Shown piece by piece: positions 765 through 62,199 of a stretch of 64,000 nt of DNA (the first letter of the stretch is position 1; every line of letters begins with the position of its first letter). The position numbers and the translations under genes are program-made. Below the pieces are notes generated by a model. That model was not told the origin of the DNA, made no database searches, and saw only the letters and a program-made list of their open reading frames with translations. Source of the DNA: Actinomycetales bacterium (lineage in GTDB: Bacteria > Actinomycetota > Actinomycetes > Actinomycetales > CAWJMD01); the NCBI GenBank assembly GCA_047974565.1, contig JBKECN010000077.1, forward strand, positions 9,723 to 73,722, read 5' to 3'.

Positions 765-766
765 GC

Positions 767-9198: not shown

Positions 9199-9258
9199 GG
9201 GGTTCGCAGAGAGAACAGTGGGCCGCGCGAACGTCGGGATGCCTGACAGGAGGTCACG

Positions 9259-10602: not shown

Positions 10603-10605
10603 GCC

Positions 10606-42522: not shown

Positions 42523-42750
42523 CTATCTGGCCGTCTCGGACACGGCCAGGGCAACCGAGTCCGTGCGGTACGTGTCGGCTGCTCGGGCCGCCGCGCGGGC
42601 GACTCTGCTCTCACCTGTTTCCTGCAACGTCAGACGGATGAGGACCTCGGCGAGCTTGTGCAGGTCGGCGCGGTCGCGGTGCACGGCTCGGACGGAGAAC
42701 GACCGCTCCTCGTACGGGCGGCGGTCGGTCTTCTTGGTGTATCGGCTCAT
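42523..42750 (-). CDS. Hypothetical small protein (75 aa)
   Basis: Intact ORF in the ICE gene string (MSRYTKKTDRRPYEERSFSVRAVHRDRADLHKLAEVLIRL...). No family recognised. Confidence 0.4.
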   Translation of the reverse strand: MSRYTKKTDRRPYEERSFSVRAVHRDRADLHKLAEVLIRLTLQETGESRVARAAARAADTYRTDSVALAVSETAR

Positions 42751-42754
42751 CGGT

Positions 42755-43351: not shown

Positions 43352-43357
43352 CGCTGG

Positions 43358-43801: not shown

Positions 43802-43849
43802 GAGGCTGTCCTCCTGATCTCAGGCGGCCAGTCCGTCGTGGCCGCTGCA

Positions 43850-46155: not shown

Positions 46156-46189
46156 GTGATCGCGGGAGTGGTGTGTGGGCGTGAGAGGT

Positions 46190-47673
46190 TCATCGGTGAC
46201 CCCCAGCCGCGCGAGAGCTCGTATCGAACAGGGCGAGTTCGGCGGGGTGGAGTTGGTGCTGGTGACGAAGCTCCTGGCCTTGATCCGCCAGAGCCCTTGG
46301 CCGACGCCCAGGTTCGGGAGGAGTTGCTGCTCGGTGCCGGTCAGGCCGAGCGCGGAGGCGGCGGGTCCGAGCTGGTCGGGTTCCTGCCGGTACACGATCC
46401 GTGTCTCTGCGTTCGCCAACAGGCTGTTGGCGAGGGAGCGCATGGCGGAGCCTTGGTCGCCGACGTTGTCGAGGTCGGTGAGCTTGTGGAAGATCAGCAT
46501 GTTCGCGATCCCGTAGTGCCGGGCGAGCCGCCAGTGCGCATCCATCCGACGCAGCAGCGCGGGGTGGGACATGAGCCGCCAGGCCTCGTCATAGATCACC
46601 CACCGCTGCCCACCATTCGGATCAAGCAAAGCGGACTCCATCCACGCTGACGAGCACGTCATCAACACCGAAATCAGCGTCGAGTTCTCCGTCACCCGCG
46701 ACAGGTCGAGGGAGATCATCGGCAGACTGGGATCGAAGGTCACGGTGGAGGGACCGTCGAACAACCCGGCGAGGTCACCGGCCACGAGTCGGCGCAGAGC
46801 GTGTCCGCCGCGGCGTCCGTCTTCGGCGAGGCGGCCGTCGGGGTCGGTGCTGAGAGCCAGGATGCGATCGACGATCATCGGGAGGATCGGCACCTCGTTC
46901 TCCCGCACCGTCTGCGTCAACGCCAGGTCGATCGCGGTGTGCTCCAACGGCGACAGCCCGCGCGCGAGAACGGTCTCCGCGAGTGCGCCGACCAGGTCGC
47001 GCCTGCGGGCGGCGACGGTGGAGGCCCACTGCTCGTCCGACAGCCCGGACGGGCGGTGGCCCTCGTCGAGCGGGTTCAGCCGCGTATTGAGTCCGTGACC
47101 AAGGACGATAGCTCTGCCGCCGACAGCGTTGGCGACGGCGGTGTGCTCGCCCTTCGGATCGCCGGGGACGTAGACCCTGCGGCCGAACGGCAACGACCGT
47201 GTGTAGAGAGACTTCGCAAGACTCGACTTGCCGGAGCCGACGATCCCGGCCAACACAACGTTCGGAGCGGTGATGATGCCGCGCGCGTACAGCACCCACG
47301 GGTCGTAGACGAACGAGCCGCCGGAGTACAGGTCTTGGCCGACGAACACCCCATCGGCACCGAGGCCTCCTTCGGCGACGAACGGGTACGCCCCCGCCAG
47401 CGTGGCGGAGGTGTACTGGTGCCGTGGGAGCCGGAACCGTCCCGGCGTTCGGAGCTGTGCCGCTCCCGGCTCGCCGCTCTTGGGCAGGTAGATCGTGGCG
47501 CGTCGCTCCGCCCGCTCAGCCTCGGCCTGTGCTTTCGCGGCGGCGAGTTCGGTCTTGCGTTGCTCGGCGTGGAGTCGGGCTTCGGCGCGGCGGCGCTGTG
47601 TGCGGAGCTTGCGGCGTTCCCTCGACGGCGCGACCAGCACGGCCGTATGCAGCCGCTCGCGATCCTGGTTCAC
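46190..47673 (-). pseudogene. VirB4/TraC-like conjugation ATPase with a frameshift about 25 codons before its natural stop
   Basis: GTG 47673 follows GAGG. Walker A is GIVGSGKSS and Walker B is VIYDEAW. After ...WRIKARSFV the listed frame turns non-homologous, while another frame reads HQHQLHPAELALFDTSSRAAGGHR-stop (TGA 46192-46190). Confidence 0.7.
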
Positions 47674-47677
47674 AGTC

Positions 47678-48070
47678 TCAGCCTCGTGATTCGCGGATCG
47701 CGGTGATCTTGGCGGGCTCGAACCACGACCTCGACTGCTTCGGCTGCGGCACGTCATGACGCTTGGGTGCACCCGGCGAGGAGTACGAGACCAGCAGTTC
47801 CGGCCCGTCCCGTGTCGGCGACGACTCGTCAATCGGTTCGGCGCTCGCGTCGGGTTGGGGGTGGCGGCGCAGCAGTGAGACGTACCCCAGGTGCGGGTTG
47901 ACGACTTCAGCGAGCCGGTCGTAGGCCTGATCGACCAGACGAGCCGACCGGCGCAGCTCCTCCGCTGCCACATGGGCATCCTGCACTCCGGCTGTCGAAG
48001 AGGCGGTGCCGTCGCGGTGGATCAACGTGGTGTTCCTCCAAGGAGACGAGGCCGACCGTCCGCTGCGCAT
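47678..48070 (-). CDS. Hypothetical small ICE protein upstream of the ATPase (start uncertain)
   Basis: ORF ending 4 nt before the ATPase GTG. The protein-like part is AAEELRRSARLVDQAYDRLAEVVNPHLGYVSLLRRHPQP...WFEPAKITAIRE. Possible starts are 48070, 47986 or 47971. Confidence 0.45.
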   Translation of the reverse strand: MRSGRSASSPWRNTTLIHRDGTASSTAGVQDAHVAAEELRRSARLVDQAYDRLAEVVNPHLGYVSLLRRHPQPDASAEPIDESSPTRDGPELLVSYSSPGAPKRHDVPQPKQSRSWFEPAKITAIRESRG

Positions 48071-48613
48071 CCTCGGCGAGCTGGGGCATGTCGATGCGGT
48101 GGAGTACCTCGCGCAGTGGGACTACGGCCAGGAGACCACGCAGGCGGCACTTAAGAACGGGTACGTCTACGACGAAACCGGCGAGGGCACGAACGACCGG
48201 GTGATGATCTCCGGCGACTACGCCCTGAGGCGGGCTCAGGATGCCAGGCGATCCGTCCCGCCGCCACGAAGCCTGCGTGGTTTCCGTCGTCGTGGAAAGC
48301 GTGCGCGGCCTTCCGCTCGTGAATGTCAGCGAGCTGTTCCAGCACCTGGTGCAGCGACCGCATCCCCGAAGAAAGGTAACCGATCACCCGTACATCTGTA
48401 CGGGCTGATCGAACGTGCGGCTCGCGTGCGCGAGACCCCGCAAAGCCTCAGACACCTCAGCGGCGTCGGTGGAATCGAAGAACGTGGGCATGGTCGGCCT
48501 CCTGAGTCGTGTGACTCGAAGGTGCGCGCCCAAGACCGTGGTAGAGTACTCATCACAGAGCGGGCGCCATTGATGGGCTAGAGGATCGGAACCTCAGTTC
48601 GCACAAAAACAGT

Positions 48614-48681
48614 GGAGACCCAGGTTCGACTCCTGGCTCCGGCGAAGCCGGATGTAGCTCAATGGGTATAGAGCCCCCGTG
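48614..48681 (+). other. tRNA-like fragments in permuted order: T-arm plus 3' acceptor strand, then 5' acceptor strand plus D-arm
   Basis: GGAG-AC-CCAGG-TTCGACT-CCTGG-CTCCGGC-GAA-GCCGGAT-GTAGCTCAATGGGTATAGAGC-CCCCGTG. It has a canonical T-loop (GGTTCGACTCC) and a D-arm-like segment, but I could not fold a complete cloverleaf. Confidence 0.4.
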
Positions 48682-48687
48682 TTCTTT

Positions 48688-49566
48688 TCACCACGACGCT
48701 GCGGTCCAGTGCCCGGACTGTCTGGCGGCTAGTTCGAGTTCTTCTGCGCTCAGGTTCAGCCCGCCGAGGTAATAGAAACGTGCGAATCCCAAGAGTCCCC
48801 GCTTCCACTGCCTGCTGTTGCGAGGGTGCTCAGCAGATTCGGCAAAGTCGGCGACGGCGATCCCGGCCCAGGTTTCTCTGCTGAGCTTCTGCCCGAGAAC
48901 CTCGTTGATGCGCCGCGCGGCCTCCTTGGTGACGGCGAAAGCTGCGATCAGATGGCCGATCGTGAAGTGCAGCTTCCCCTCGGTCATCATCGAACTGAGC
49001 GGCCCCATCGTCAGTTGTTCCCATCTCTCGCGTTGCGCCTCGGTCAGTGAGCCCAGAACATCTGTCACTTCCGCTGTCACTTGGCCCGCATGATGAATCT
49101 GAGCGTTCCGAACGCAACGAAGCACGTGGAAGAGTGGGACGACGTCAGCTGGCTCGTCGACACCTGCGGCATCGAAGAACGTCTTGTGCATGCGTCCAGC
49201 GTTCAAAGCCCCCCACGCCTGCGACACCGTGTGGCCTGCGTCCTCCAGCATGGTGATTGCGTCTTTGACGAAGGCCTCATAGACAGCCAGCGCGTACGGA
49301 ATCGCCACTGCCGCCAGATGAGCATCGGCGTCGAGGAGGAGTTGCGACGCACGGTCCGGTAGGAGGTTAAACCGGTCGATATCCTTTACCGCCGGAAACA
49401 ATCCGGGAAGCTGATGAGGAGAACCGCTGTGCAGCTGGAGATTGTGCGCTGCCAGTCGAGAGCCCGCAAGGAGCGCGATCATGGCATTGTTCGCCTCGAC
49501 CCGCGCGTCTACATAGGCCCGGTACCTCGCAAAGTTGATCTCGCTCACACCTCCAGTTTCGCTCAT
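48688..49566 (-). CDS. HEPN-motif protein (putative RNase / abortive-infection-type cargo)
   Basis: ORF trimmed to ATG 49566 (MSETGGVSEINFARY...). It contains LRCVRNAQIHHAG, which matches the HEPN Rx4-6H signature in its usual hRxxRNxxxH context. GC is lower than in neighbouring genes. Confidence 0.5.
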   Translation of the reverse strand: MSETGGVSEINFARYRAYVDARVEANNAMIALLAGSRLAAHNLQLHSGSPHQLPGLFPAVKDIDRFNLLPDRASQLLLDADAHLAAVAIPYALAVYEAFVKDAITMLEDAGHTVSQAWGALNAGRMHKTFFDAAGVDEPADVVPLFHVLRCVRNAQIHHAGQVTAEVTDVLGSLTEAQRERWEQLTMGPLSSMMTEGKLHFTIGHLIAAFAVTKEAARRINEVLGQKLSRETWAGIAVADFAESAEHPRNSRQWKRGLLGFARFYYLGGLNLSAEELELAARQSGHWTAASW

Positions 49567-49621
49567 CGCCTCACCGGTCGCGGCGCGTCGGTCCAGATGA
49601 TCGTGCCCAGCGGCGGCAAGA

Positions 49622-51087
49622 TCACACCCGACGGCACAGCGGCAGCGCTGCGGCAGTGAACGCGGCGGCTTGCTGGCCGACGAGGAGACGGGTCTCACAC
49701 GAGGCCTGAATCGCGGCTTGCTCGATTGCGGCGACGGCGGCGTCGAGTTCCTCCACGGTGGGTGCGGAGATGGCGATGAGGCCGGTGTAGCGGAGGATGC
49801 CGTGGCCGGCGGTGAGGTCGGCTTCTTGTTGGAGCACGTCGTGGTATTCGGCGGTTTGGGAGGCGTCTTCGATCTGGCCGATCTTCGCTCGTTGGGCTTG
49901 GTCGGAGATGTGTTCGACTTTCTTCTTGCGGATGTCGCGGGCGGCTCGGTCGGAGCGCATCGGGGTGCAGATCAGCGAAAACGACCGCTGAATACCGGTG
50001 GACAGCAGCACCGGCGACAAGAACCCCGGATACACGAGCGAGCGTGGCCACTCACTGACCCACAGCACCGCGTGGTGCGCGGAGTCGGTGCGCAACCGTC
50101 CCCAGGTTTCGGTGACCGCGACCGGACCCGCGGTAGCGAGCGACTGACCGAGCTGGCCATGGCGTTCCAGGGTGGCGGCGATGGCGGGGTCGTAGGCCGA
50201 GCGCAGCATGACCGCGATCTGTCCTGGCGTGAGCCAGCCCGACGGTGCGAGGTCGGCGGAGCGGAGCGCGGCGACCAGCGTGTTCATCTCCTGACGCAGC
50301 ACGTTCGCCGCGCCCCGGATGCCGCCGCCCGCGGTTCTGATCTGCCTGGCCGCCGCCTTCATATCCAAGGAGAGAGACAGCGTGGTGGCGTGGCGTTCAC
50401 CGGCGGGTCCGGCGCGTTCGATCAACTCGGCGTAGGTATCAGCGGCCCATGACCCGTCGGGGGTGCCGTGGGCTGCCCACCACTCGGCAAGCCCGGTGCC
50501 GGAGTCCGGCAGGGTGCGCTCCAACACCTGCAGGGTGGCGACGCGGCCGGAGCGGCAGACGGTCGCGAGCACGCGACCCCAGGAGGTGACGCGACGTTCC
50601 TGTTCGCCGGGGTCGAGGAGCACGATTGCGGGATGGCTGACCTCACAGACCACGGTCAGGGTCGCGGCGTGGGGGTCGTGGATCATCCCGACCCCGGTGT
50701 CGGGGTCCTCGAACTCCCGCAGCCTGGCCATGTCGCCGGGCAGCGCGAGGGTCCCGACAGGACGGGGGACAACGATTCTGCGCTGGTAGAGCAACTGCCC
50801 GCCGGTGGTGCGCCACAGCCACCAGCACGTCACCGGCAGCCACTCTACGATGGGTCGGCCTGCGATGGGTATCCAGGTCAGCGCAGCGGAGAGTACCCAG
50901 ACGGGTGCGGTGTAGGCGAGGAGCATCCCGCCTACGGCGTAGAACGCGCCGATCAGCGTGGCTCCGCCGATGGCGAGGGTGATGGCTGTGTTAGGGAGAG
51001 GCCGAGGAGGATGCCTCGGCGGGTGAGGCGGGAGAACTTCACCGGCACGAGATCGCCCGCGCTACGCGGGTTCTGATTCGAGGTCAC
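49622..51087 (-). pseudogene. SCO6880-like conjugal-transfer membrane protein with an N-terminal frameshift
   Basis: GTG 51087 gives VTSNQNPRSAGDLVPVKFSRLTRRGILLGLSLTQ, then a stop. The sequence continues in another frame as AITLAIGGATLIGAFYAVGGMLLAYTAPVWVL... (ORF 49622..50926). The shift lies near 50988. Confidence 0.7.
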
Positions 51088-51091
51088 GGGT

Positions 51092-52502
51092 CTACTCCTT
51101 TGGCGCGCGTGGCGCAGGCGGCGTGGGCTTCGGCGGGGGCGCGGGATCGCTCCTCGGCGCGGGCGGTGCCGGACTTGACGACAGCGGCGCTACCTGAGTG
51201 GGCGCAGCCGGGGGCTGAGCGGCAGGCGGTGGCGGTGGGGTCTGGGCGGCGGCATCCGCGGCGTGCTCGCCTTGGGCACCGAGCGCGGTTCCGGCTTTCG
51301 GCCCGGCAGTGGCGACTCCCTTGGCGACCTGAGCGCCGACGACCACGGCAGCAGCGGGTCCAGCAGCAGCGGCACCACCGCCTGCGGCTGCACCGCCACC
51401 GGACGCAGCGGCACTTCCACCTGATGCACTGGCACCGCTGCCTGCTGATGCTGCGGGCTTGGGCGCGGGCGGCGTACCGCCTCCACCTCCACGGCCAGCG
51501 CCACCACTACTGGAACTGCCGGTGCCGCCTGCGCCGTCGAGTACCTTCTTCGGCTCGGCTCCGCCGCCTGCGCCTCGTCCGGGGACGGGGATGGGCCGGT
51601 TGAGGGCGTATTTGGCGTCTTGTTCGGAGCCGATGGCGTGGTACATGTCGAAGCCGACGAACGCGATGAACTTGTAGGTCAGGTACGGGGCGAACGCGGC
51701 CATCGCCATCAGGACGATCCCGGCGATGAGGTCGCTGATCGAGGCCAGGTCGGCGTCGATGGGTGCCGGGTGATCGCGACCAGGAACATCACGACGAGCA
51801 CGAGCTTGGAGCAGATCAGCGCGACGACGAACATCGCCCACTTCCCGATCCACCCCCGCGAGGCGTCCCACGACGCGCCACTGAAGGCGAGTGGGGCGAA
51901 CACGATCGCGACCAGCAGCAGGGCTTGCGTACGAGGAGGGAGAGCCAGACGATGGCGGCGGCGGTGATCGCGAGGCCGGCCATGAAGATCGTGATGATCG
52001 CCCCGACTCCGGGGGCGGCAATGTTGATCCCGACCAGGCCGGTGGCGAGGAGGGCGATCTTGTCGCCCATCGAGTCGGTGGTCTCGCCTGCGGCTTGGAC
52101 GATCCCGATGCACAGCTGGTCGACGACCTCCAGAAGAAGGGCTGTCAGGGTGATGACGACGAACGACCCGAGGACGGACTTGGCGAGGCCGAGGGCTGCG
52201 CGGGTAAGGGCGGTGGGGTCGCGTCGGATGAGGCCGGTGATGAGTTGGAGGCAGAAGAAGATCAGCATCACGAACACCGCGACGCCGAACAGCAGGTTGT
52301 AGACGCTGACGTAGCCGGGCCGGGTGACATCGACGAGGGTGGTGGTGTCGAACACCGACCAGACCGCCTCGAACAGCCAGCCCGCGGCGGCTCCCATGGC
52401 TTGGGCGAGCCAGTCGAACGGGGCCGCGACCAGTGTGGCGGCCCCTTCGCCGACGGCATCGCAGACCGAGGAGATTACCGGGATGTCGCACACGCTCATC
52501 AC
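51092..52502 (-). pseudogene. TrbL/VirB6-like polytopic T4SS membrane protein split over three frames
   Basis: Frame a (52502 to about 51931) ends at ...AAIVWLSLLVRK. Frame b reads ALLLVAIVFAPLAFSGASWDASRGWIGKWAMFVVALICSKLVLVVMFLVAI. Frame c (from about 51775) reads PIDADLASISDLIAGIVLMAMAAFAPYLTYKF... followed by a G/A/P-rich tail. Confidence 0.75.
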
Positions 52503-52969: not shown

Positions 52970-55449
52970 GCGACTGAGGAGTGGCGTACTCGAGCCACCG
53001 CGATCCTCGGCCGCGAGGCGACTCGTTGGGCGATGGATGTGACCGACAACGACCGGCCGTTGCTGTTGCGGGCCGATGACATTCCGCTCGACGTGGTCCG
53101 CGACATCGGCAGCACGGTCGTCGAGACGGTTGGTGAGAAGCGTTCGACCTGGCGCAGGTGGAACCTCATGGCCGAAGCGACGAGGCAGACGATGGGGTGG
53201 CGCTTCGCCACCATGAACGATCGTGAAGCGGTGATCGCGATGGTCACCGACGCCGCCCAGCTCGCATCCCTCCGGCTCATCCCTCCCGAGCTCTCGCTCT
53301 CGCCCCTGGTGTTCCGGCGCGACCACGGCATGTCGGTGTTCCGTCCGGTCAACTCAGCGGTCTTCACCTCCGAGGGGCACTCGCTGCGGAGGACCGGCTG
53401 CTCGACCGCTCCCGTGACCTCACTGGCCTGACCGTCACCCTCGCGACCGTCGAGAAGATTGCCCGCAACCCAGACGCGGACGGGCTGGTACTGGGTGAGG
53501 ATCAGGCCGAGGCGTTGACGCGGATCGCGGTGTCGGGGCGGATGCTCGATGTGCTCGTCGGCCCCGCCGGGGCGGGCAAGACCACCGCCATGAACGCGCT
53601 CCGCCGAGCCTGGGAGGCCGAGCACGGCAGAGGCTCCGTGGTCGGGCTCGCCCCGTCGGCGGTGGCCGCGCAGGTCCTCGCTGACGATCTCGGGATCGAG
53701 ACTGAGAACACCGCGATGTGGTGGCAGAACCACCTCACCAACGGACACACATTCCTGCCTGGGCAGTTGGTCATCGTCGACGAAGCCTCCCTCGCCGGCA
53801 CCCTCTCGCTGGACCGAATCACCGGCCTTGCCCAGCAGGCGGGCGCGAAGGTGCTGCTCGTCGGTGACTACGCCCAGCTTCAATCGGTCGATGCCGGGGG
53901 CGCGTTCTCCATGCTTGCCCGTGACCGCACCGACACCGTCGAACTCATCGACGTCCACCGCTTCCACCAGCCGTGGGAGAAGCTCGCCTCCCTCGACCTG
54001 CGCCACGGCCACACCTCCGTGATCGACAACTACCTCGCCCACGGCCGCATCCAGGACGGCGACACCGAGACCATGACCGACGCCGCCTACACCGCCTGGC
54101 GGGCCGACCGAGACGCCGGACACATCACCGTCCTGATCGCCGAAACCCGAGAACAAGTGACCGCGCTCAACGAGCGCGCCCGCGCTGACCTCCTCATCGA
54201 CGAGACCCTCACCCAGGATCAAGAGGTCGAGCTGCACGACGGTAGCCATGCGGGTGTCGGGGACACCGTCATCACCCGCCACAACGACCGGAAGATCACG
54301 GCCAGCAACGGCAACGACTGGGTGCGCAACGGCGACATCTGGACCATCACTGACGTTCGAGGCGACGGAAGCCTCACCATCCGCAGACCAGGCCGCTCCT
54401 ACGGCGGCGCGATCGTGCTGCCCGCCGCGTACGTCGCCGAGCATGTCGATCTCGGATACGCCGTCACCGCGCACCGAGCCCAAGGCGTCACGACCGACAC
54501 CGCCCATGTTCTGGTCGAGCCGACCGCGACGAGGGAGAACTTTTACGTCTCCATGACCCGAGGCCGTGCCGCGAACAATGCCTACGTGATCCTTGACCGT
54601 TCCGACGATCACCAGCAGCCGCACCCCGGCGACGACCCGAACGCGAGCAGCCGCAGCGTCCTGACTGGAGTGCTCCAGCACGTCGGAGCGGAACTGTCCG
54701 CGCGCGAGACGATCACCGCCGAACAGGAACAGTGGGGCTCGATCGCGCAGCTCGCCGCCGAGTACGAGACCATCGCGGCCGCCGCGCAGCACGACCGTTG
54801 GGCATCCCTCGTCCGCGCATCCGGCCTCACCGCCGAGCAAGCCCAAGCCGCGGTCGAGTCCGAAGCCTTCGGCCCACTTACCGCAGAACTCCGCCGCGCC
54901 GAAGCCAACCACCACGACATCGATACCCTGCTCCCACGCCTGGTCCAGTCGCGTGGGTTCGGAGACGCCGACGACATCGCCGCCGTCCTCCATTACCGAG
55001 TCGCCCGAGCAACCTCACGACCCGCTGGATCGGGCCGAGCCCGCAAAGCACCGCGCCTCATCGCCGGACTCATCCCACACGCAGACGGCGTGCACGATAG
55101 CGAGATGCGGGCCGCGCTCGACGAGCGAGAAGCACTCATCGAAGCCCGCGCCGACGCCGTCCTCGACGGCGCCCTCACGGACAACGCACCATGGTCGAGA
55201 GCGCTCGGCACACTGCCCCGAGGCCCCAGCCGCGCCGCGACCTGGCGGAAAGCCGCACGAGTAGTCGCCGCCTACCGAGACCGCTACCGCATCACCGGCG
55301 ACACCCCGCTCGGAGCACCGCCCGTGTCCGAGGCACAGAAGATCGACGCAGCCAGAGCAGGAGCAGCACTTGACAGCGTCCGACAGGTTGCGCAGACCGC
55401 GCTGGCGCTCGCCCGTCAAACGTCGGGCCGGGTGGGTCCGACACTGTGA
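52970..55449 (+). pseudogene. MobF/TrwC-type relaxase remnant: 5'-truncated and frameshifted, with the helicase part intact
   Basis: The frame opens only at 52970 (ATEEWRTRATAILG...RSTWRRWNLMAEATRQTMGWRFAT), so no relaxase catalytic domain is present. A frameshift lies at the G4 run at about 53375. The sequence then reads ALAAEDRLLDRSRDLTG...VLVGPAGAGKTT (Walker A), LVIVDEASL and a UvrD_C-like YAVTAHRAQGVT. Confidence 0.8.
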
Positions 55450-55515: not shown

Positions 55516-57294
55516 TCAGGGACTCGCTGTTACTTCTGTGATCGGCCCGTTCGCTACGCCGGGTTCAAGGGTGACGACTGGCTGGTAACGTGCACCATCG
55601 CTTGAATTGGCCTCCCACTCATACACGATGGTTCGCAGAGTGTTGAGATGGCGCCCGACGAGAACAGCCATCGCGAATGGGCCGTGGAAGGCGAGGTGTA
55701 CCTCGGCCCGTCCCTGACTCGCGGAGAGCTTCTTGACTTGCTGCGCGATGGCTGCGCTGAGACGAGCTGCTTCTCGCGGGTCGATTCGTTCTGTACTCCC
55801 AAGTGAGATGATCTCGGCTGCGTCGAATCCATTGGCTGAGTCGTTCACAAGCTGTTCGAAAGCGGTCCGATCTGCATGCGGCGTCAAAGTCACGAAGATC
55901 GCCACGCGATGTTGGAGTTCTGCCGTCCGATCTGGTTCGGGTTGCGCGGGCTCGATTGTCAGTTCGGTGTTATGTGGGTCATCGTCGGGCGCGGCCGACG
56001 TCCAGGCATTGTCCTCCAGATCGATCACGATCACTTTGCCGATCTTCGTTTCGGGCAGCGCCGCGCCAACCGTGAGGCCGACTGCCAAGTGGGCTCCGCC
56101 CGATACACGTACGCTCTTTGCTCCGGCCGCGTACACGGCATCGCTGGTCAGCGGGAGCGTCTTCTGGAACAGCTCCAGCCCTGCACGGGAAGGAAGCCGC
56201 CCGTCGTCCGACGGTTTGAGTCGGATGTGAAGGTCCTCCTCGTCGGCGTCAAGGGCAGATGATGTAGGGCGGCTTTGCACGCGAATCGTGAAATCACGTC
56301 CTTCTGCGCGAATTCTCGGCTTTCGTTGCTCGATGCGGTGCATGAGGAGGTCGCGCACGATCTCGACTTCGCCCGACGGCTGACGCATGTTCGCTTGCTT
56401 CTTGTCGGCCAGGGTTCGTGCAGGCGCGAGTCGCAGGAGCCGATCCGGGGCGTCGTAGTCACACCTCAATTCATCGCCTGCCCGTGTAACCGTGTTCGCG
56501 ATGCACAGGCTGAAGTTGGGATCGGCATCGAGCTGGAGCAGACGTGGCAGTTCGCGTTCACGGACGATGTCGCTGTGTGCGATGTCGGGGGTGATGACGA
56601 GCACGCCTGCCGAGAGACCTCGGGTGAGCGCCTGTTCGAGGCGGTCGGTGGTCGTGCCGGGTCGAAGGTCCGTGTGATCTCTCCACACGACAAGCCCGGC
56701 AGCCCTGAGCAAATCCTCAAGAGCGTCGGCTTGCGCGGTGCCGTCTGATTGGCGGTACGAGATGAATACTGGGCCGTCGCCGCGAACGGCACCATCCGGT
56801 AAAGGACCGAGGGGAGGGAATCTCGAAGGAGGGAAAGAGACGACTGCTTCCTTCATTGTGGTCCTCCCGAACCGTTTGCGTTGGGCGATGAGGCCGAAGA
56901 ACGCACCGGTTGGGCCAGGCGCAAAGACGAGCAGCGCGATCGGAGTGGAACTGACCTTGGCGGTCGCACGCATCGCTGCGTGATCTACGGTGCTCGGTCC
57001 GGATGGGGCTGGGTGGCTGTGCCACTCACCGACGTAGCCGATCGGATCGTCGTCAGCTCGTTGCTCCAGAAACTCCTGCAAGAGCTCGTCCGCGCGAATG
57101 TCGTCGCGAACGTACCTGTTCGTCGTCGCCCTTTGCCCTTCAACAACCAAGGCGTGAGTTGCCACAATGGTGCCGTTCTCCTGATAGCCGAGGAGGATGC
57201 CACCAGTCTCCAGAGGAAGGCGGTTCGCTGTCTCGAAGGCGATGCTCTCATAGGCATCGACTCGGAGATCGATATGCGATGGCGGACGAGTCAT
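55516..57294 (-). CDS. Fusion protein: Cap3-like JAB/MPN metalloprotease + TIR + SAVED (CBASS effector fused to the deconjugase)
   Basis: 592-aa uninterrupted ORF. Residues 1 to about 150 are JAB-like, with ETGGILLGY and the JAMM motif HSHPAPSGPSTVD (56983-57021). Residues about 175-300 are TIR-like (VFISYRQSDG...GVLVITPD...RERELPRLL). Residues about 310-592 are SAVED-like, ending HLAFHGPFAMAVLVGRHL...IVYEW. ATGA overlap with the Cap2 stop. Confidence 0.75.
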   Translation of the reverse strand: MTRPPSHIDLRVDAYESIAFETANRLPLETGGILLGYQENGTIVATHALVVEGQRATTNRYVRDDIRADELLQEFLEQRADDDPIGYVGEWHSHPAPSGPSTVDHAAMRATAKVSSTPIALLVFAPGPTGAFFGLIAQRKRFGRTTMKEAVVSFPPSRFPPLGPLPDGAVRGDGPVFISYRQSDGTAQADALEDLLRAAGLVVWRDHTDLRPGTTTDRLEQALTRGLSAGVLVITPDIAHSDIVRERELPRLLQLDADPNFSLCIANTVTRAGDELRCDYDAPDRLLRLAPARTLADKKQANMRQPSGEVEIVRDLLMHRIEQRKPRIRAEGRDFTIRVQSRPTSSALDADEEDLHIRLKPSDDGRLPSRAGLELFQKTLPLTSDAVYAAGAKSVRVSGGAHLAVGLTVGAALPETKIGKVIVIDLEDNAWTSAAPDDDPHNTELTIEPAQPEPDRTAELQHRVAIFVTLTPHADRTAFEQLVNDSANGFDAAEIISLGSTERIDPREAARLSAAIAQQVKKLSASQGRAEVHLAFHGPFAMAVLVGRHLNTLRTIVYEWEANSSDGARYQPVVTLEPGVANGPITEVTASP

Positions 57295-58757
57295 TCGTGA
57301 CTCCTCACTGCGCCGATCGACAGGTCTCGCGTTTCCCCCGCTGGGTGGAGAGGGCGACCGACGAGTAGGTCGACGGTGTGACGCACGGTCGCTGCGGCCG
57401 CCTCAATCACCGCGTAAGGGGGCGTCGGAGAGATGGGACTGCCACAGCCGGCTTCGAACAGTTCAGACTCAGGCTGGTCGACAACGACGGACGAGGGTGG
57501 CAGCGGTTCGGCGCCGTCGAGCGGTGGCAGCACATCGATTCGGTAGCTCGTGCCGCCATTCTGGATCGCCGATGAGATGATTCGCCTGGACAACGCCCGT
57601 GCAGTGACATGGAGGAGCGCAGTGGTGGCGAAATCGGCGGTCGCGTCCACCACGAGATCGTGGTCGCTCAGAAGCTCGACAGCTTCGTCACCCGAGGTGA
57701 GTGCGTGATCGACCACCGTGACGTTGGCAGCTGCAACCCCATTGCGGTCAACCAGATGCTGCTTGACCGCCGCAACCTTTGACCGTCCCACAGCTTCAGG
57801 GCCGACAAGGTGACGGACAAGATTCCCTGGCATAACTACGTCACCATCGAGCAGGGTGAGATTTTGAACACCGGAGCGCACGAGCATGTCCGCGACAAAC
57901 GAGCCGAGGGCTCCGACGCCCACAACTGCGACTCGACGTCCGCGGAGCTCGGGAGCGAGCAGACCTGAGCGCGCGGCCTTGGCGGCATCGGTGTCGGCAC
58001 CTGAGCTCAGGCGTCTGACCGCGATGCCGCCATCCACGGTAGGCCACACTTCGAGTGTGATTGCGCCGTCGTGAGAGCCACGTCTGTATATCAGCACCAC
58101 GATCTCAATCGTGTGGTTGCGAATTCTGCGGTCTAGGTCGACGCTGGGGTTGATACGAGCGGAGATGTCGTCCCATGATCTTGGGGGCACGTTTACATCG
58201 CCGAGGTTGGCAACGTATCCGAAGCGATCCTTGCTGTGCTTCGAGGACTTCGCTGGCTTGGTGCCGCCAGCAATCCGCATGAGGTTGTTCGCTGCCGGGC
58301 GGAACCGAACGAATCCGCTGGGATATCGGGTCAGGTCATCGTAGAGATAGAGTCGCTCATCCCCTGAGGGCTCGAAGTAGCGGTCGAGGTCGAGGTCAGG
58401 CCGGTCGTCTGGCCATCCTGCTGCCGCCTGCTCGAACCAGGCGGCGACGTGTTCGAGGAACGCGGGCGCCTCGGTCCACCACAGTCCTTCGTGATCGTCT
58501 TCGGCGACCAAGCACAGCGATCCGTCCAGTTCCCGGTGCCAGGACCACGCGACCGCTTCTGAGTCGAGCGGAACCACGCGGGGTGGCTGAAAGGGATAGC
58601 GGGCATGCAACTCCATGAGAACCTCGGTGGCGCCTCCGGGGTGAACGATGGTCCCTCGCCAGCCGTTGTCATCCTCCGTGAAGCCCGCTCGGATCAGCCC
58701 TTCCTCGAAGTGCTGTCGTGAGTATGCGACGTAGTCGTCGTACTCGGTGAGGGTCAC
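57291..58757 (-). CDS. cap2: CBASS Cap2: E2-like plus E1 (ThiF/adenylation) fusion protein
   Basis: 488 aa. The N-terminal UBC-like region contains YPFQPPRV and a Cys in DGSLCLV. The E1 domain has VVGVGALGSFVADMLVRSG...LLDGDVVMPGNLVRH and a Cys in EAGCGSP. GTGA overlap with the CD-NTase stop. Confidence 0.8.
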   Translation of the reverse strand: MTLTEYDDYVAYSRQHFEEGLIRAGFTEDDNGWRGTIVHPGGATEVLMELHARYPFQPPRVVPLDSEAVAWSWHRELDGSLCLVAEDDHEGLWWTEAPAFLEHVAAWFEQAAAGWPDDRPDLDLDRYFEPSGDERLYLYDDLTRYPSGFVRFRPAANNLMRIAGGTKPAKSSKHSKDRFGYVANLGDVNVPPRSWDDISARINPSVDLDRRIRNHTIEIVVLIYRRGSHDGAITLEVWPTVDGGIAVRRLSSGADTDAAKAARSGLLAPELRGRRVAVVGVGALGSFVADMLVRSGVQNLTLLDGDVVMPGNLVRHLVGPEAVGRSKVAAVKQHLVDRNGVAAANVTVVDHALTSGDEAVELLSDHDLVVDATADFATTALLHVTARALSRRIISSAIQNGGTSYRIDVLPPLDGAEPLPPSSVVVDQPESELFEAGCGSPISPTPPYAVIEAAAATVRHTVDLLVGRPLHPAGETRDLSIGAVRSHE

Positions 58758-59764
58758 CCGAAGGTCCTCGTGCCCGCCGGGACGGTCCGTGCGCCAGCCG
58801 AGATGGCGGACGCGCGCTTCGACCCGTCCTCATTGAATCCCGGCGGCATCGGAAACACCGTCTCGTCGTCCCCGTTCTTGCCCAGCAGTCCCTGGAACGC
58901 CAGCGCGGCTTTACCCTCGTCCTCCTCGTCGAGCGCTTCGCGTGCGGCTTCCGCAGCGTCAGCGAAACGTGCCTTCGCTGCATCCAGCTCATCATCTGTT
59001 GCACGAATGCTGATGGTGTGCCCCGGCAGGGTGGGGTCGTTCACTCCGATGCCGAAGGTAACGTAGTCGTTGACGATCTTGCTGACCTCTTCGAGCGCAG
59101 AGGCGTAATACTCTGCGTGATCGTTGCCCGAGACCAAGCCGGAGGCGAAGGCTTGGTACGTCGCGACTTCGATGAAGAACCCGCCAGGCTTCTTGCCGGC
59201 GCCGAGTATCGAGCGTCGGGTCTGACGGAGCAGCTTCACCGTGGGAACGTAGTAGCCGTCATGCGAGGCGTTCATTTCACTCGACAGCGACGTGAGCTTC
59301 TCCGGATTGGTACGCACCCACTCGTCCTCATCGCCCTTCTGAGGGATCTCCCACGTCTCACCATCCCAGTAAGGGCGGGCAGGCACCGCGTCGACATACA
59401 GGTCGTACTCGGGGAACGACACCTGCAGACTGCGATCCTGGCGCTTGGTTCGCCGGTGACCATCGTCATCACTCCCGAACTCCGCATGCAGGACGGTGAA
59501 GAATCGATCGAGGATGTCTTTCGACGTGACGTCGCTCGGTAGGTCCGGGAGCCGCACGAACACGTCAACGTCTTTGACTCGCTTGATCGACACGTTCCTC
59601 TTGTACGAGCCGATCAGCACCGGGTCCACTCCGTACTCGGCGAGCTTCGTGTCGGCTTCGAGTGCATCCCGCACCAGCCGGTGTGCCTCTGGCGCGTTGG
59701 CCTTGTCATCGCCGGGCTCGATGGAGCTCAGCGCATCCTTGAACTGCTGCTTGAGGTGAGCCAT
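58754..59764 (-). CDS. cGAS/DncV-like nucleotidyltransferase (CD-NTase)
   Basis: 336 aa with the Pol-beta NTase signature IGSYKRNVSIKRVKDVDVFV (GS...DxD) and a third acidic residue in YVDAVPA. The C-terminus ends ...TRTFG. GGAGGG lies 4 nt upstream of the ATG. Confidence 0.8.
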   Translation of the reverse strand: MAHLKQQFKDALSSIEPGDDKANAPEAHRLVRDALEADTKLAEYGVDPVLIGSYKRNVSIKRVKDVDVFVRLPDLPSDVTSKDILDRFFTVLHAEFGSDDDGHRRTKRQDRSLQVSFPEYDLYVDAVPARPYWDGETWEIPQKGDEDEWVRTNPEKLTSLSSEMNASHDGYYVPTVKLLRQTRRSILGAGKKPGGFFIEVATYQAFASGLVSGNDHAEYYASALEEVSKIVNDYVTFGIGVNDPTLPGHTISIRATDDELDAAKARFADAAEAAREALDEEDEGKAALAFQGLLGKNGDDETVFPMPPGFNEDGSKRASAISAGARTVPAGTRTFG

Positions 59765-59856: not shown

Positions 59857-59973
59857 CTACTTCTTGCCGCGCTTGCCGGTGCTCTCGTTGGTCGTGGTCT
59901 TCGGGTGACGCTTCACCGTGGACTGCTTCACGAACCGACCCGTGACCGCGCTGCGCCCTCGCTTGCTTGCCAT
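59857..59973 (-). CDS. Small basic protein (38 aa) at the head of the CBASS transcription unit
   Basis: ATG 59973 is preceded by a purine-rich stretch, AGGGGGTGAGGAGT. The sequence is MASKRGRSAVTGRFVKQSTVKRHPKTTTNESTGKRGKK. It lies 92 nt upstream of the CD-NTase on the same strand. Confidence 0.45.
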   Translation of the reverse strand: MASKRGRSAVTGRFVKQSTVKRHPKTTTNESTGKRGKK

Positions 59974-60158
59974 ACTCCTCACCCCCTCTACCTCACACTC
60001 GGTGTCCTGGCCCCGGATTGGAGCCTGTCGCGACTGTATCAGCAAAGCGTCAGCGCCATGCAGGAGACACGCCATGTCGTGTCAGCAACGAGTCAGCGCG
60101 CTACGCTTACGCTCATGGAACGGAGACGCGCCGAGGTGGCTAACGCAACGAGGACAGC

Positions 60159-60659
60159 ATGACAGGGACCTCCGACACTTCACCGGGTGTGGAACGGCTC
60201 GACGTAACGCAACTTGGCGCGATGCTCCGCGAGCGCCGTGGGAAGCTGTCGCTTCGTCAAGCCGCTGCCGAAGCTGGCGTTAGCTTCAGCACCTTCACCC
60301 GCATCGAGGCGGGTGCTCAGCCTGACCTGACCTCATTCACGCTCTTGTGCGCTTGGCTCGGTGTCTCGCCCGGGCAGTTCTTCATGCCGACGGCGTTGCG
60401 GGAGATGGCGCCGATCGATGAAGCGATCGCGCACCTTGCTTCCGATCCGCGCCTTGAGCCCGATGCTGCATCCAAGATCGCAGAGATGCTGCGCAGCATG
60501 TATGACGCGCTAGCCAAGGCACCGGCTCGGCGCCAAGTGGTTGCTTGCCACCTTCGGGCTGCTTCGATGCTTCGCCCCGGGGTGCCCGAGCGTCTCAACT
60601 CGCTCTTGGGGGACATGCACGACAAGTTGGCGGCACGCGTTGCCGCCGGGGAACTGTGA
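60159..60659 (+). CDS. XRE-family HTH regulator (CapH-like or ImmR-like)
   Basis: 166 aa with the HTH LGAMLRERRGKLSLRQAAAEAGVSFSTFTRIEAG and a C-terminal helical domain. It is divergent from the CBASS operon. GTGA overlap with the next gene. Confidence 0.8.
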   Translation: MTGTSDTSPGVERLDVTQLGAMLRERRGKLSLRQAAAEAGVSFSTFTRIEAGAQPDLTSFTLLCAWLGVSPGQFFMPTALREMAPIDEAIAHLASDPRLEPDAASKIAEMLRSMYDALAKAPARRQVVACHLRAASMLRPGVPERLNSLLGDMHDKLAARVAAGEL

Positions 60660-61207
60660 CGCTACGGCGCGGGTTCAAGGCAGAAGCCGAGCGCGAGGCG
60701 GCGAGAGTTCGGAAGGAACTCGGTCTTGCCTCGCACGATCGCCTTGACCCGCGCGACCTCGCCAAACACCTAAAGGTATCGGTCGTCAACGCCGGTGACT
60801 TGGTAGATATCCGCGACCTCGAAGAGCTGGAGCGACTGCAAGCCTTCGCCTTTTCCGCTGCCACCTTCGAGATCGATGATCGTCGGATCATTGTCGTAAG
60901 CCCTCTCCGGACACCAGGTCGACAGAACAGCGATATCGCGCACGAACTGGCCCACATCATGTTGAAGCACGACCTCGCTGAAATCCGCGAACTCAACGGG
61001 ATGCCCTTCCGAACCTGCAAGCCGGACGAGGAGGAGGAGGCTACGGCCTTCGGGGGCACGCTTCTTCTCCCGCGCCCACTCCTTCTCAGCGCAGCGCGCC
61101 GACGAACCCCTGTCGACCAGATCGCCGGCCAGTACGACGTCACCGTCGAGATGGCACGGTTCCGTTACAACACCACGGGTGTCGCCAAGCAGGTTGTGTC
61201 TCGATAG
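60656..61207 (+). CDS. ImmA/IrrE-family zinc metallopeptidase (CapP-like or ImmA-like)
   Basis: GTG 60656. The HExxH motif is IAHELAHIML, with a downstream EEEATAFGGTLLLP typical of the ImmA/IrrE family. Confidence 0.8.
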   Translation: MTLRRGFKAEAEREAARVRKELGLASHDRLDPRDLAKHLKVSVVNAGDLVDIRDLEELERLQAFAFSAATFEIDDRRIIVVSPLRTPGRQNSDIAHELAHIMLKHDLAEIRELNGMPFRTCKPDEEEEATAFGGTLLLPRPLLLSAARRRTPVDQIAGQYDVTVEMARFRYNTTGVAKQVVSR

Positions 61208-62199
61208 CTGGGCCGAGAGCGATCCGTGGCCGTTGACTGCCGCAGTGCAGCTTGGCGACCGAATGCGCTCGTATCGTCGGGATCGTTTCTGTGCGCGACC
61301 AAGGACTGGACATCCCCTGCGTCGGTGACCAGCCTCGCGAGACCACTCTGTACGAGGTGGTGTGGGCCGACACTCGTCGCGCTCGCGACGGGGCCAGGGA
61401 CGGCGCCGACTGCGCGGCCGAGTTGACTTGCGTTGTGTGCGACCTTCATCGATCCCGACCGCGCGCCTGCCTCAACCACGACAGTTGCTGCGGATAGCGC
61501 TGCCATCAACCGCGCACGGGCCAGGAACCGATGGCGGGTCGGTGTTGCACCTGGTGCCACTTCGCTGACCAGAAGACCGACATCGGCGACACGACCGAGC
61601 AGTTCGCTGTGGCCCGCTGGATACGGGCGATCAACTCCGTTCGCCAGGACTGCGATGGTGTCGCCACCGATCGCGAGCGCCGCGCGATGGGCAGCGCCTT
61701 CAATGCCGTAGGCACCGCCTGCGACGACGATCCGCTCGGCGGCAGCCAGATCGGAGGCGAGCGTCCCGGCAACGTGCTCGCCGTAGGAGGTTGCGGCTCG
61801 CGCGCCGGTGACGGTCACGAGGTCGGCGAGCGGGCGTGCGAGGAACGACGAGGCTCCGCGAGTCCACAGCACGTAGGGAGCCCGCTCACCAAGATCGCTG
61901 AGCGAGCCGGGCCACCCGTCGTCGCCGGGGATCAGGACGCCGAGCCCGGATCGTCGTGCTTGGAGGAGACGCTCGTCAAGTGAGTCAATGCCCGGAGTGG
62001 AGAAGCGTCCGCGCCAGACTCGGGCGTCAACGTCGCCGAGGCCAGGTACAGGGCTGTCGGACTCAGCCAGCCGCAGAGTTTCGACGCCGCCGACCGTGGC
62101 GAGCAGGTGACCCGTCACTGCGTCGTCCGGTTCAACGAGCATCGACAGCACCATTCGCGCGGTGCGCTCATCTCCTGCAATCTCACTCAAGCTCGGCAT
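61165..62199 (-). CDS. dprA: DNA-processing protein DprA/Smf
   Basis: ORF trimmed to ATG 62199. The sequence GARAATSYGEHVAGTLASDLAAAERIVVAGGAYGIEGAAHRAAL...VLANGVDRPYPAGHSELL...VVEAGARSGSMKVAH...AVPGPV is DprA Rossmann-domain-like. Its 3' end overlaps the ImmA-like gene by 43 nt (convergent). Confidence 0.8.
   Translation of the reverse strand: MPSLSEIAGDERTARMVLSMLVEPDDAVTGHLLATVGGVETLRLAESDSPVPGLGDVDARVWRGRFSTPGIDSLDERLLQARRSGLGVLIPGDDGWPGSLSDLGERAPYVLWTRGASSFLARPLADLVTVTGARAATSYGEHVAGTLASDLAAAERIVVAGGAYGIEGAAHRAALAIGGDTIAVLANGVDRPYPAGHSELLGRVADVGLLVSEVAPGATPTRHRFLARARLMAALSAATVVVEAGARSGSMKVAHNASQLGRAVGAVPGPVASATSVGPHHLVQSGLARLVTDAGDVQSLVAHRNDPDDTSAFGRQAALRQSTATDRSRPSYRDTTCLATPVVL

Follow-up and report, generated by a model that had tools for sequence, protein, structure and literature searches.

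Canonical type II CBASS operons, as described from E. cloacae, V. cholerae, and B. cereus WPySW2 (the last in PMC11153139), encode a CD-NTase that ends in Gly, a Cap2 E2+E1 fusion with two catalytic cysteines, a separate JAB isopeptidase, Cap3, and a phospholipase or nuclease effector. The TIR-SAVED effector of Microbacterium ketosireducens (Mke; PDB 7QQK, Hogrel et al. 2022) belongs to a type II CBASS and is a stand-alone protein of 433 aa that is activated by 3',3',3'-cA3 with filament formation, with Arg388 and Trp394 belonging to the cA3 pocket and the stacking interface (bioRxiv 10.1101/2022.05.04.490601, from which we take the roles of the TIR residues). The CBASS of E. coli MS115-1 has two DNA-damage-responsive regulators, CapH and CapP, an HTH repressor and an M78/ImmA-type peptidase that are encoded upstream on the opposite strand, CapH being cleaved by CapP under stimulation by ssDNA or DNA damage (bioRxiv 10.1101/2022.04.27.489752). 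Further, PADLOC and DefenseFinder hold a SAVED_TIR_JAB family (PDLC02013, PDLC00727), and in the E2-E1-JAB triple fusions of the "6a" systems the JAB domain is likewise joined to a neighboring operon gene.

The locus described here lies in a stretch of 64,000 nucleotides from an Actinomycetales bacterium (GCA_047974565.1, contig JBKECN010000077.1), which we refer to as the window. Its operon comprises four genes, in order of transcription:

59857-59973, minus strand: 38-aa basic ORF (MASKRGRSAVTGRFVKQSTVKRHPKTTTNESTGKRGKK), the operon's first gene, with a strong ribosome-binding site
58754-59764, minus strand: CD-NTase, 336 aa
57291-58757, minus strand: Cap2, an E2+E1 fusion of 488 aa with a GTG start
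55516-57294, minus strand: fused JAB-TIR-SAVED protein, 592 aa, one ORF

An earlier note, made from the sequence alone, had read the last three of these genes as a translationally coupled, type II CBASS-like operon. The three ORFs lie where it placed them, with both of the 4-nt overlaps that it reported (GTGA at 58754-58757 and ATGA at 57291-57294), and the motifs that it cited, GS...DVD in the first ORF and a JAMM motif followed by FISYRQSDG in the 592-aa ORF, are seen in the translations. Its annotation as a CD-NTase, an E2+E1 Cap2, and a Cap3-type JAB in cis with TIR-SAVED is borne out by profile HMMs, AlphaFold, and Foldseek. However, the operon was drawn too short, as the 38-aa first gene and a divergent CapH/CapP-like pair had been left out. 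The low GC content that it had estimated by hand also holds qualitatively (62.2% GC, versus 73.1% in window positions 1-8000); since the mobile-element segment from 41 to 64 kb has 61-70% GC throughout, the operon is not an isolated GC island. Terminator-like matches at 59763 and 55508 were only weak or on the wrong strand. The intergenic region gave no sigma-70 promoter when scanned, a result that carries no information in an actinobacterium of high GC content.

The Gly-ended CD-NTase, the two-Cys Cap2, and the JAB isopeptidase are common to this locus and canonical type II CBASS, whereas the fusion of Cap3 to the effector and the TIR-SAVED nature of that effector set it apart, the gene order being cyclase, Cap2, and then Cap3-effector. 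The CD-NTase matches SMODS in Pfam (7e-14) and, over its full length, the PADLOC cyclase PDLC00810 (5e-160), and among solved structures it comes closest to the CD-NTases 9sa4/9sa5 (1e-24). None of its active-site residues (G52-S53, D65xD67, and D125) varies across the related operons (15 of 15). Its Gly-terminal tail reads ...VPAGTRTFG, and a C-terminal ...RT(F/Y)G is likewise found in 15 of 15. Cap2 matches the PADLOC E1-E2 model PDLC00844 over its full length (1e-216), ThiF in Pfam (6e-25), and the Cap2 structures 7tsq/7to3 in the PDB (3e-13), as well as, weakly, Prok-E2_A (0.008, under the gathering score). The protein has one cysteine in each part, C82 (E2) and C438 (E1), and no others; both are kept in 15 of 15 operons.

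The 592-aa protein is divided as follows:

56836..57276, minus strand: Cap3-type JAB/MPN+ domain, aa 7-153; JAMM residues E29, H92, H94, S101, and D104
56770..56835, minus strand: fusion junction, aa 154-175
56494..56769, minus strand: predicted TIR NADase domain, aa 176-267
55564..56307, minus strand: predicted SAVED cyclic-oligonucleotide sensor domain, aa ~330-577

Pfam places Prok-JAB at aa 15-117 (2e-9), TIR_2 at aa 176-249 (3e-8), and SAVED at aa 392-576 (1e-23), the last with an NCBIfam SAVED match of 1e-26, and the AlphaFold model (pLDDT 74.8) contains three folded domains; together with Foldseek, these results confirm the JAB, TIR, and SAVED domains that the earlier note had proposed. 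The TIR-SAVED part closely resembles the Mke effector, both in Foldseek (7qqk_A, E 1.4e-34, target-normalised TM 0.81) and in sequence (aa 165-588 align with PDB 7QQK, E 5e-80), and the window protein differs in having a JAB domain of ~155 aa ahead of it. The catalytic Glu, the D-L pair, and the cA3-site R/W are common to both: in the 7QQK alignment, E248 corresponds to Mke E84 and the BB-loop residues D209-L210 to D45-L46, all being invariant in homologues, and in the SAVED domain R554 corresponds to R388 (at least 90% conserved) and W560 to W394 (invariant). By this likeness, the cA3 specificity of the Mke effector may extend to the window system.

The fusion of Cap3 to the effector had been put forward as an undescribed architecture, and this claim does not stand. 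PADLOC-DB v2 (2023) contains two full-length HMMs for JAB+TIR+SAVED, namely (i) PDLC02013, "SAVED5--SAVED_TIR_JAB", to which residues 1-589 align with profile positions 1-583 of 584 (E=0, 1098 bits), and (ii) PDLC00727, "Effector TIR", to which the same residues align with positions 1-589 of 590 (E=0, 1113 bits). From end to end, this family shares all three domains and their order with the window protein, which is an ordinary member and in which we detect no difference from it. Public databases contain at least 120 clusters, at 90% identity, of fused proteins of ~590 aa and hundreds of fused homologues. The clusters come from many genera of actinobacteria and from one alphaproteobacterial MAG, and the three-gene order is shared by 17 genome loci, that MAG among them; at the 50% level, about nine fused clusters occur amid roughly 100 unfused ones. 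The closest relatives are a metagenomic protein (97% identical) and a Citricoccus protein (85% identical). A full-text search, with Millman et al. 2020 and Burroughs et al. 2015 outside its scope, found no paper on a JAB-TIR-SAVED or Cap3-effector fusion. The earlier note had allowed that a catalogued, common fusion would remove its claim of novelty, and the PADLOC models and the hundreds of fused homologues do so: the JAB-TIR-SAVED fusion is a catalogued, widespread architecture that is already known, and it should not be promoted as new.

How the fusion may have arisen is suggested by its unfused relatives. Both the tails of stand-alone JAB proteins (P0340, P0354, and P0367) and the heads of TIR-SAVED proteins (P0247 and P0253) align at the junction, which indicates that no extra linker domain was added. 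In a split sister operon (L045-L050), which resembles the Mke operon type, the JAB and TIR-SAVED genes overlap by ATGA. The fusion is thus best explained, from these alignments, by a merger of adjacent, coupled genes through stop-codon loss in an ATGA-type overlap, with both activities probably kept. Unfused TIR-SAVED proteins (P0247, P0248, P0253, P0254, and P0279) interleave with fused forms in one branch of a crude NJ tree, suggesting easy interconversion and functional equivalence. Among the long TIR-SAVED relatives (520-1200 aa), we found no JAB elsewhere; one is a CHAT-TIR-SAVED protein, and the rest have unassigned extensions.

The fusion, kept from 97% to 40% identity, could nevertheless carry a functional meaning invisible to sequence analysis, and the earlier note had proposed such a meaning. 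The tether would impose a 1:1 stoichiometry and hold the deconjugase on the filament, or take it away from the CD-NTase once the filament forms, in which case effector activation would feed back on CD-NTase priming. The fused form does persist over that range (97% to ~40%) in two phyla with its JAMM, TIR, and SAVED residues intact, and a junction segment, L-G-P-L-P-x-G-A-V, is well conserved within the close family. We nonetheless consider such a role unlikely, given the interleaving of fused and unfused forms, the lack of any added linker or new element, and the translational coupling that the split versions already possess; moreover, the full-text literature search found no report of such effector-priming coupling. 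The E2-E1-JAB fusions differ in the partner of the JAB domain, which there is Cap2, its antagonist, and here the effector. The natural split and fused versions, which share the same mobile-element backbone, provide a clean system for asking if the placement of Cap3 matters.

A second alternative, that the JAB domain has ceased to be a deconjugase and now serves as a degenerate scaffold or caps the TIR domain to autoinhibit it, appears very improbable. In its favor, the NCBIfam Cap3 equivalog NF050170 scores under its cutoff (2.5e-4; 21 bits versus 200 bits), and the JAMM motif, E29...H92-S-H94-PAPSGP-S101-TV-D104, has an H94-S101 loop with one residue fewer than that of 9ILD, the solved Cap3-like peptidase to which it was aligned. 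Yet none of the five JAMM residues varies among 29 fused homologues and, as inspected by eye, all are kept in all eight representatives of 40-57% identity; about 20 PADLOC JAB models match the domain (best 9e-14); and its fold matches active MPN+ enzymes in Foldseek, with Rpn11 (5u4p_B, target-normalised TM 0.74) and CSN5 among the matches. Cap2-containing CBASS systems normally carry a JAB gene, and this operon has no second one. Finally, it is hardly credible that cap3 and the TIR-SAVED gene were joined into the 592-aa frame by an error of sequencing or assembly, or by a frameshift that arose recently in this strain: a single indel could create the fusion from 4-nt-overlap split versions like those of the sister operon, but at least 120 independent clusters, as well as 17 loci from different genera, share the same ~590-aa frame, and divergence among the homologues is spread across the junction.

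Returning to the merged-gene reading of a type II CBASS, the locus also resembles E. coli MS115-1 in its control genes, which lie upstream on the opposite strand:

60159..60659, plus strand: putative CapH-like XRE-family HTH repressor, 166 aa, divergent from the CBASS operon
60656..61207, plus strand: CapP-like ImmA/IrrE (Peptidase_M78) metallopeptidase, 183 aa, with HExxH as HELAH
60036..60099, no strand: candidate operator, a 21-nt direct repeat and a 9+9 nt palindrome

The GTG start of the CapP-like gene overlaps the capH stop (GTGA). The CapP-like protein matches Peptidase_M78 in Pfam (5e-15), and its best PADLOC match is capP (PDLC04141, 2.6e-13). The CapH-like protein matches HTH_31 (2e-8) and HTH_3 (4e-6) in Pfam, whereas PADLOC capH (PDLC04142) is a weak match (0.003) and not the top one; this match and the gene position point weakly to CapH. 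A phmmer search of the PDB with both proteins gave no relevant matches, and the CapH/CapP assignment hence draws on Pfam, PADLOC, and gene position. Both are close to their counterparts in L045, the CapP-like protein being 94.5% identical to the product of the same-position 183-aa gene and the CapH-like protein 94.6% identical. A repeat search delimited the candidate operator, in which the repeats 60036-60056 and 60079-60099 (86% identical) flank a palindrome at 60066-60083, and a 3-way alignment showed the region to be conserved in L045.

Read by homology, the parts of the locus suggest the following course. The CapH-like repressor and the CapP-like peptidase would most likely hold the operon repressed, until DNA damage or ssDNA de-represses it, as has been shown for CapH/CapP in other systems. 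Cap2 would adenylate and conjugate the C-terminal Gly336 of the CD-NTase through E1 Cys438 and E2 Cys82, yielding a primed CD-NTase, and the JAB domain (E29, H92, H94, S101, and D104) would undo this conjugation in the manner of Cap3. Upon infection, the CD-NTase would produce a cyclic oligonucleotide signal, probably cA3 or another cyclic trinucleotide, whose binding between head-to-tail stacked SAVED domains would allow the TIR domains to form active NADase sites (E248); the resulting NAD+ depletion would abort the infection. The messenger, the conjugation and deconjugation steps, and the NADase activity are transferred from relatives at ~40-50% identity for the Mke effector and at ~1e-24 for the nearest solved CD-NTase. 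We regard it as highly probable that this explanation holds as a whole, that is, type II CBASS cargo with an anti-phage function under CapH/CapP-like control, with a mechanism as in its homologues and a fusion produced by gene merger.

A conjugative element that has partly decayed carries the CBASS operon as cargo; the mobile-element context comprises TraG/VirD4, a serine recombinase, a relaxase remnant, and a tRNA-Ala. Within the window, a regulator module and a cargo operon form a mosaic, and the 38-aa ORF is the point at which they cross over.

This ORF, situated between the regulators and the cyclase, distinguishes the locus from the CapH/CapP arrangement of E. coli MS115-1, and the CapH/CapP literature that we checked makes no mention of it. 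Eleven related loci carry it in the same place with 76-97% aa identity, no other gene of the locus is as well conserved in the most distant relative, and its variation falls mostly on third codon positions (23 of 25 vary, versus 10 first and 8 second positions). The core of the protein reads GRSA[VI]TGRFVKQSTVKRHPKTT[TV]NE. It belongs to an unnamed family of 142 clusters in a single-sequence search, for which a 41-aa orthologue served as query, and of at least 1,753 in a profile search; Pfam, NCBIfam, and PADLOC give no match. Rfam finds the tRNA as its sole match, indicating that no known riboswitch or leader RNA takes the place of the ORF. AlphaFold predicts a beta-beta-alpha-beta fold (pLDDT 78 overall, ~88 in the core), and Foldseek with this model returned nothing significant (best E=0.6). 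We took that best match, to a beta-beta-alpha piece of the Sda1 nuclease, for a coincidence, since the His that would be catalytic shows no conservation.

The family also heads other operons adjoining HTH/M78 regulators, including CBASS with fused or split TIR-SAVED or with patatin, Bub-type ubiquitination, DUF2188, and TIR operons, and an E2-E1-JAB triple fusion (L055) likewise lies behind the small ORF. It is possible, although we would not call it probable, that the 38-aa protein, as the first gene product behind the regulated promoter and one better conserved than the enzymes encoded after it, is an unrecognised functional component of CapH/CapP-type-controlled operons, with its near-identical DNA serving as a homologous hinge for the exchange of regulator modules and cargo operons, as in this window. 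Such a protein could act as a nucleic-acid-binding sensor or co-regulator, or as a lysine-rich acceptor for Cap2.

The Cap3-effector fusion is thus striking in the raw sequence, yet it represents a common actinobacterial CBASS subtype, and the side observations may outweigh it. Among them, the 38-aa ORF is a lead worth following: its conservation at the heads of many different defense operons beside HTH/M78 regulators hints at a component still missing from the CapH/CapP regulatory module, and the recombination seam that it occupies suggests a concrete mechanism for swapping defense cargo between regulators on conjugative elements.

At its core, the operon consists of three minus-strand ORFs, whose positions in our ORF listing agree exactly with those in the earlier note:

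58754-59764, minus strand: CD-NTase (the cyclase), 336 aa; Pfam SMODS, PADLOC-DB cyclase model PDLC00810 (5e-160)
57291-58757, minus strand: Cap2, an E2+E1 fusion, 488 aa with a GTG start; Pfam ThiF, PADLOC-DB E1-E2 model PDLC00844 (1e-216)
55516-57294, minus strand: fused JAB+TIR+SAVED protein, 592 aa; PDLC00727 ("Effector TIR") and PDLC02013 ("SAVED5--SAVED_TIR_JAB")

The GTGA and ATGA overlaps are present at the minus-strand junctions (...TTCGG GTGA CC... and ...CACGA ATGA CTCG...), and the translations contain the motifs quoted in that note. All three proteins are matched end to end by PADLOC-DB models, with PDLC00727 and PDLC02013 each covering residues 1-589 of the fused protein (E=0 for both). 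Pfam detects in the second ORF a below-threshold Prok-E2_A match besides ThiF, and resolves the fused protein into Prok-JAB (aa 15-117), TIR_2 (aa 176-249), and SAVED (aa 392-576). In the CD-NTase, Gly52-Ser53, Asp65, Asp67, Asp125, and a tail ending in ...RT(F/Y)G are invariant in 15 of 15 operons, as are the only two cysteines of Cap2, namely Cys82 in the E2 part and Cys438 in the E1 part. The operon, which had been described as lower in GC than its host, has a GC content of 62.2%, while the first 8 kb of the window stand at 73.1%; the direction of that remark is correct, but reduced GC extends over the entire 41-64 kb segment and is not confined to the operon.

An AlphaFold2 model of the fused protein, built on 29 homologues (mean pLDDT 74.8, pTM 0.66), places an alpha/beta domain at aa 7-153, joined through a short connector to a TIR-like domain (aa 176-267), which a helical bridge links to a SAVED domain extending to aa 576. 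The top Foldseek match of this model in the PDB is 7QQK, the TIR-SAVED filament subunit of Microbacterium ketosireducens (Mke; E 1.4e-34, target-normalized TM 0.81), which also aligns by sequence to aa 165-588 (E 5e-80), whereas the N-terminal domain matches the MPN+/JAMM deubiquitinases Rpn11 (TM 0.74) and CSN5. The three proposed domains are thus borne out, and the N-terminal domain does model as an MPN+ fold. Its JAMM residues (Glu29, His92, His94, Ser101, and Asp104) are invariant in 29 fused homologues and visible in eight representatives of 40-57% identity. The catalytic and ligand residues match their counterparts in Mke TIR-SAVED, where the residue roles were described by Hogrel et al. 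(preprint, 10.1101/2022.05.04.490601): Glu248 and Asp209-Leu210 of the TIR domain (Mke Glu84 and Asp45-Leu46) are invariant, and in the SAVED domain Arg554 (Mke Arg388) is at least 90% conserved and Trp560 (Mke Trp394) invariant. Because of these HMM matches, the fold, and the conservation of catalytic and ligand residues, the locus has, as far as sequence can tell, every mark of a type II CBASS, one in which the effector's N-terminal domain is predicted to take the role of Cap3. Domains, HMMs, and residues alike support the original annotation of a type II CBASS with a Cap3-effector fusion.

The architecture itself, which the earlier note took to be undescribed, is not new. It has a dedicated HMM (PDLC02013) in a 2023 defence-system library, abundant homologues, and a conserved operon; the locus belongs to a catalogued CBASS subtype and is unremarkable within it. 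Searching 5.8 billion sequences with the fused protein returned 344 matches. Each of the best 120 (identity 65-97%) is a JAB+TIR+SAVED protein of ∼590 aa, in most cases labelled "SAVED domain-containing protein", and the genera represented are Citricoccus, Brevibacterium, Herbiconiux, Nostocoides, Kribbella, Microbacterium, Kocuria, Glaciihabitans, Frigoribacterium, Streptomyces, and Corynebacterium. When one genome per species was scanned, the gene order CD-NTase, Cap2, fused effector turned up at 17 loci, one of them in an alphaproteobacterial MAG (Terricaulis) with 49% identity. The literature that we searched, which did not include the two comparative-genomics papers likeliest to list it, contained no description or test of a JAB-TIR-SAVED fusion; the architecture is, as far as can be seen, catalogued yet functionally unstudied.

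In a library of 50%-identity representatives, about nine fused clusters (572-595 aa, with matches spanning almost the whole protein) stand against ∼100 ordinary TIR-SAVED clusters (∼420-450 aa). A crude neighbor-joining tree of the TIR-SAVED part, drawn without support values, placed all fused representatives in one branch with unfused ones interspersed, and this interleaving suggests that fusion or fission happened more than once. Since the C-terminal tail of the closest stand-alone JABs and the N-terminal head of the closest stand-alone TIR-SAVEDs both align to residues ∼150-170 of the window protein, the fusion brought in no extra sequence. In a split sister operon on metagenomic contigs (L045-L050, genes at 7001-11923), the E2 (204 aa), E1 (432 aa), JAB (175 aa), and TIR-SAVED (434 aa) proteins are separate, and the JAB and TIR-SAVED genes share an ATGA overlap. 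Loss of a stop codon between translationally coupled neighbors is the simplest origin of the fusion.

Upstream of the cyclase lie a regulator pair, a repeat region, and a small ORF; the regulators and the mobile-element context had been overlooked in the earlier note:

59857-59973, minus strand (that of the operon): basic ORF of 38 codons with a strong ribosome-binding site, lying between the regulator pair and the cyclase; product MASKRGRSAVTGRFVKQSTVKRHPKTTTNESTGKRGKK
60036-60099, between capH and the operon: 21-nt direct repeat (GTATCAGCAAAGCGTCAGCGC and GTGTCAGCAACGAGTCAGCGC) around a 9+9-nt palindrome, conserved in L045
60159-60659, divergent from the cyclase: CapH-like XRE-type HTH protein, 166 aa; weak PADLOC capH match (0.003)
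60656-61207, divergent from the cyclase: CapP-like Peptidase_M78 protein, 183 aa, with a HELAH motif; PADLOC capP is its best match (2.6e-13)

The M78 gene overlaps the stop of the HTH gene by GTGA, and the pair has the same upstream, divergent arrangement as CapH/CapP, which de-repress CBASS following DNA damage (bioRxiv 10.1101/2022.04.27.489752). The repeats are plausible candidate CapH operators. CapH, CapP, and the small ORF are all missing from six related fused-CBASS loci (L010, L012-L015, and L017), and this joint absence indicates that the three are gained or lost as one unit, apart from the three CBASS genes.

The small ORF occupies the same position in 11 of 17 related loci (tblastn), with actinobacterial copies 87-97% identical. 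In the Terricaulis MAG, the most distant relative, no other gene of the locus is as well conserved: it is 76% identical, versus 65% for the cyclase, 51% for Cap2, and 49% for the effector; differences in the core between this copy and that of the window are nearly all synonymous. Across 18 different DNA versions, variation is seen at 23 of 25 third codon positions, versus 10 first and 8 second positions; the copies were located by peptide pattern, a way of sampling that restricts which non-synonymous changes can be seen. The ORF has no name in Pfam, NCBIfam, or PADLOC, and its family, comprising 142 clusters by single-sequence search and at least 1,753 by profile search, is annotated "hypothetical" throughout; one UniRef member of the family is called "Multidrug transporter", apparently in error. 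The AlphaFold model is a compact beta-beta-alpha-beta unit (core pLDDT ∼88), for which the PDB offers no significant structural match. In five database members (P0391, P0394, P0400, P0403, and P0448; 64-97 aa), the ∼25-aa core is duplicated in tandem and therefore behaves as a repeat module.

Nor is the small ORF restricted to this CBASS subtype. Eight of nine sampled contexts have, adjacent and divergent, either an HTH gene and an M78 gene or a fusion of the two; the divergent genes of the ninth (L053) have no Pfam assignment, and a tenth locus (L060) has the small ORF without any such context. The small ORF is followed by (i) a fully split CBASS of cyclase, 204-aa E2-like protein, ThiF, JAB, and TIR-SAVED in L045-L050; (ii) a fused CBASS in L051 and L052 (Streptomyces and a metagenomic contig) and in L056; (iii) a patatin CBASS with an E2-E1-JAB triple fusion in L055; (iv) a Bub-type ubiquitination operon in L058; and (v) a TIR-containing cluster in L053. 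In L059 nothing follows it, and a DUF2188 gene precedes it. The CapH/CapP literature that we searched makes no mention of a small gene of this kind.

The two sides of the small ORF have different closest relatives. CapH and CapP of the window are ∼94.5% identical in amino acid sequence to those of L045 (DprA more loosely, at 71%), where the cargo is a different, fully split CBASS whose cyclase gives no BLAST match and whose other proteins are 33-40% identical to those of the window. Conversely, the cargo is 88-97% identical to that of loci L001-L005, whose CapH and CapP are just 31-35% identical to the window's. In a three-way DNA alignment (window ∼59857-59990, L045 6560-7560, L001 4900-5900), sequence on the regulator side of ∼59990 matches L045 only and that on the cargo side of ∼59857 matches L001 only, while the ∼130 bp in between, made up of the small ORF and its ribosome-binding site, are near-identical to both. 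A crossover within this segment, common to all three, explains the mosaic: the locus is recombinant and the seam falls within the small ORF, which is direct evidence of regulator/cargo shuffling at this spot. The small ORF may be conserved because of a role as recombination hinge, or it may serve as a hinge because it was conserved already.

The surroundings of the operon are those of a mobile element:

40614-40688: tRNA-Ala
41463-42614, minus strand: serine recombinase
43850-45640, minus strand: TraG/VirD4 coupling protein
45637-47979, minus strand: 780-aa ORF with no Pfam match
52973-55449, plus strand: TrwC/TraI-type relaxase-helicase remnant, convergent with the CBASS operon
61165-62199 (start corrected), minus strand: DprA (DNA_processg_A), flanking the operon and convergent with capP

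The features from 40614 to 47979 are hallmarks of a conjugative element. The relaxase-helicase matches just residues 378-1191 of an intact relative, and its reading frame shifts near 53320-53374; the sequence upstream of it yielded no TrwC catalytic domain. The expected site of the relaxase N-terminus is occupied by a lower-GC patch (48000-52500; ∼63% at 48-50 kb) with several 190-434-aa ORFs without a Pfam match, which may be the insertion that broke the relaxase. DprA, for which the mechanical ORF call (to 62406) is probably ∼69 codons too long at the N-terminus, overlaps the capP 3' end by 43 nt; since the same overlap occurs in L045-L050, it travels with the CapH/CapP regulator module. Given the relaxase remnant, TraG/VirD4 protein, serine recombinase, and tRNA-Ala around it, the CBASS is cargo of a conjugative element that looks partly decayed.

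By analogy with characterized systems, CapH would repress the divergent promoter and CapP would lift this repression upon DNA damage, while Cap2 would activate and conjugate the C-terminal glycine of the cyclase, a conjugation that the JAB domain would undo. Infection would trigger synthesis of a cyclic oligonucleotide, likely a trinucleotide such as cA3 because the Mke-type pocket is conserved; ligand-bound SAVED domains would then stack head to tail, forming composite TIR NADase sites, and the resulting loss of NAD+ would abort infection. Being fused, Cap3 and the effector are necessarily equimolar, which is all of the fusion's effect that sequence can demonstrate. That it also tethers Cap3 to the effector, or creates feedback between them, as had been proposed, we consider unlikely.

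The split sister operon of L045-L050, on the same element backbone, provides a natural pair for comparing split with fused effectors. The lead to carry forward is the unnamed small protein, together with the recombination seam, that heads operons beside CapH/CapP-type regulators.
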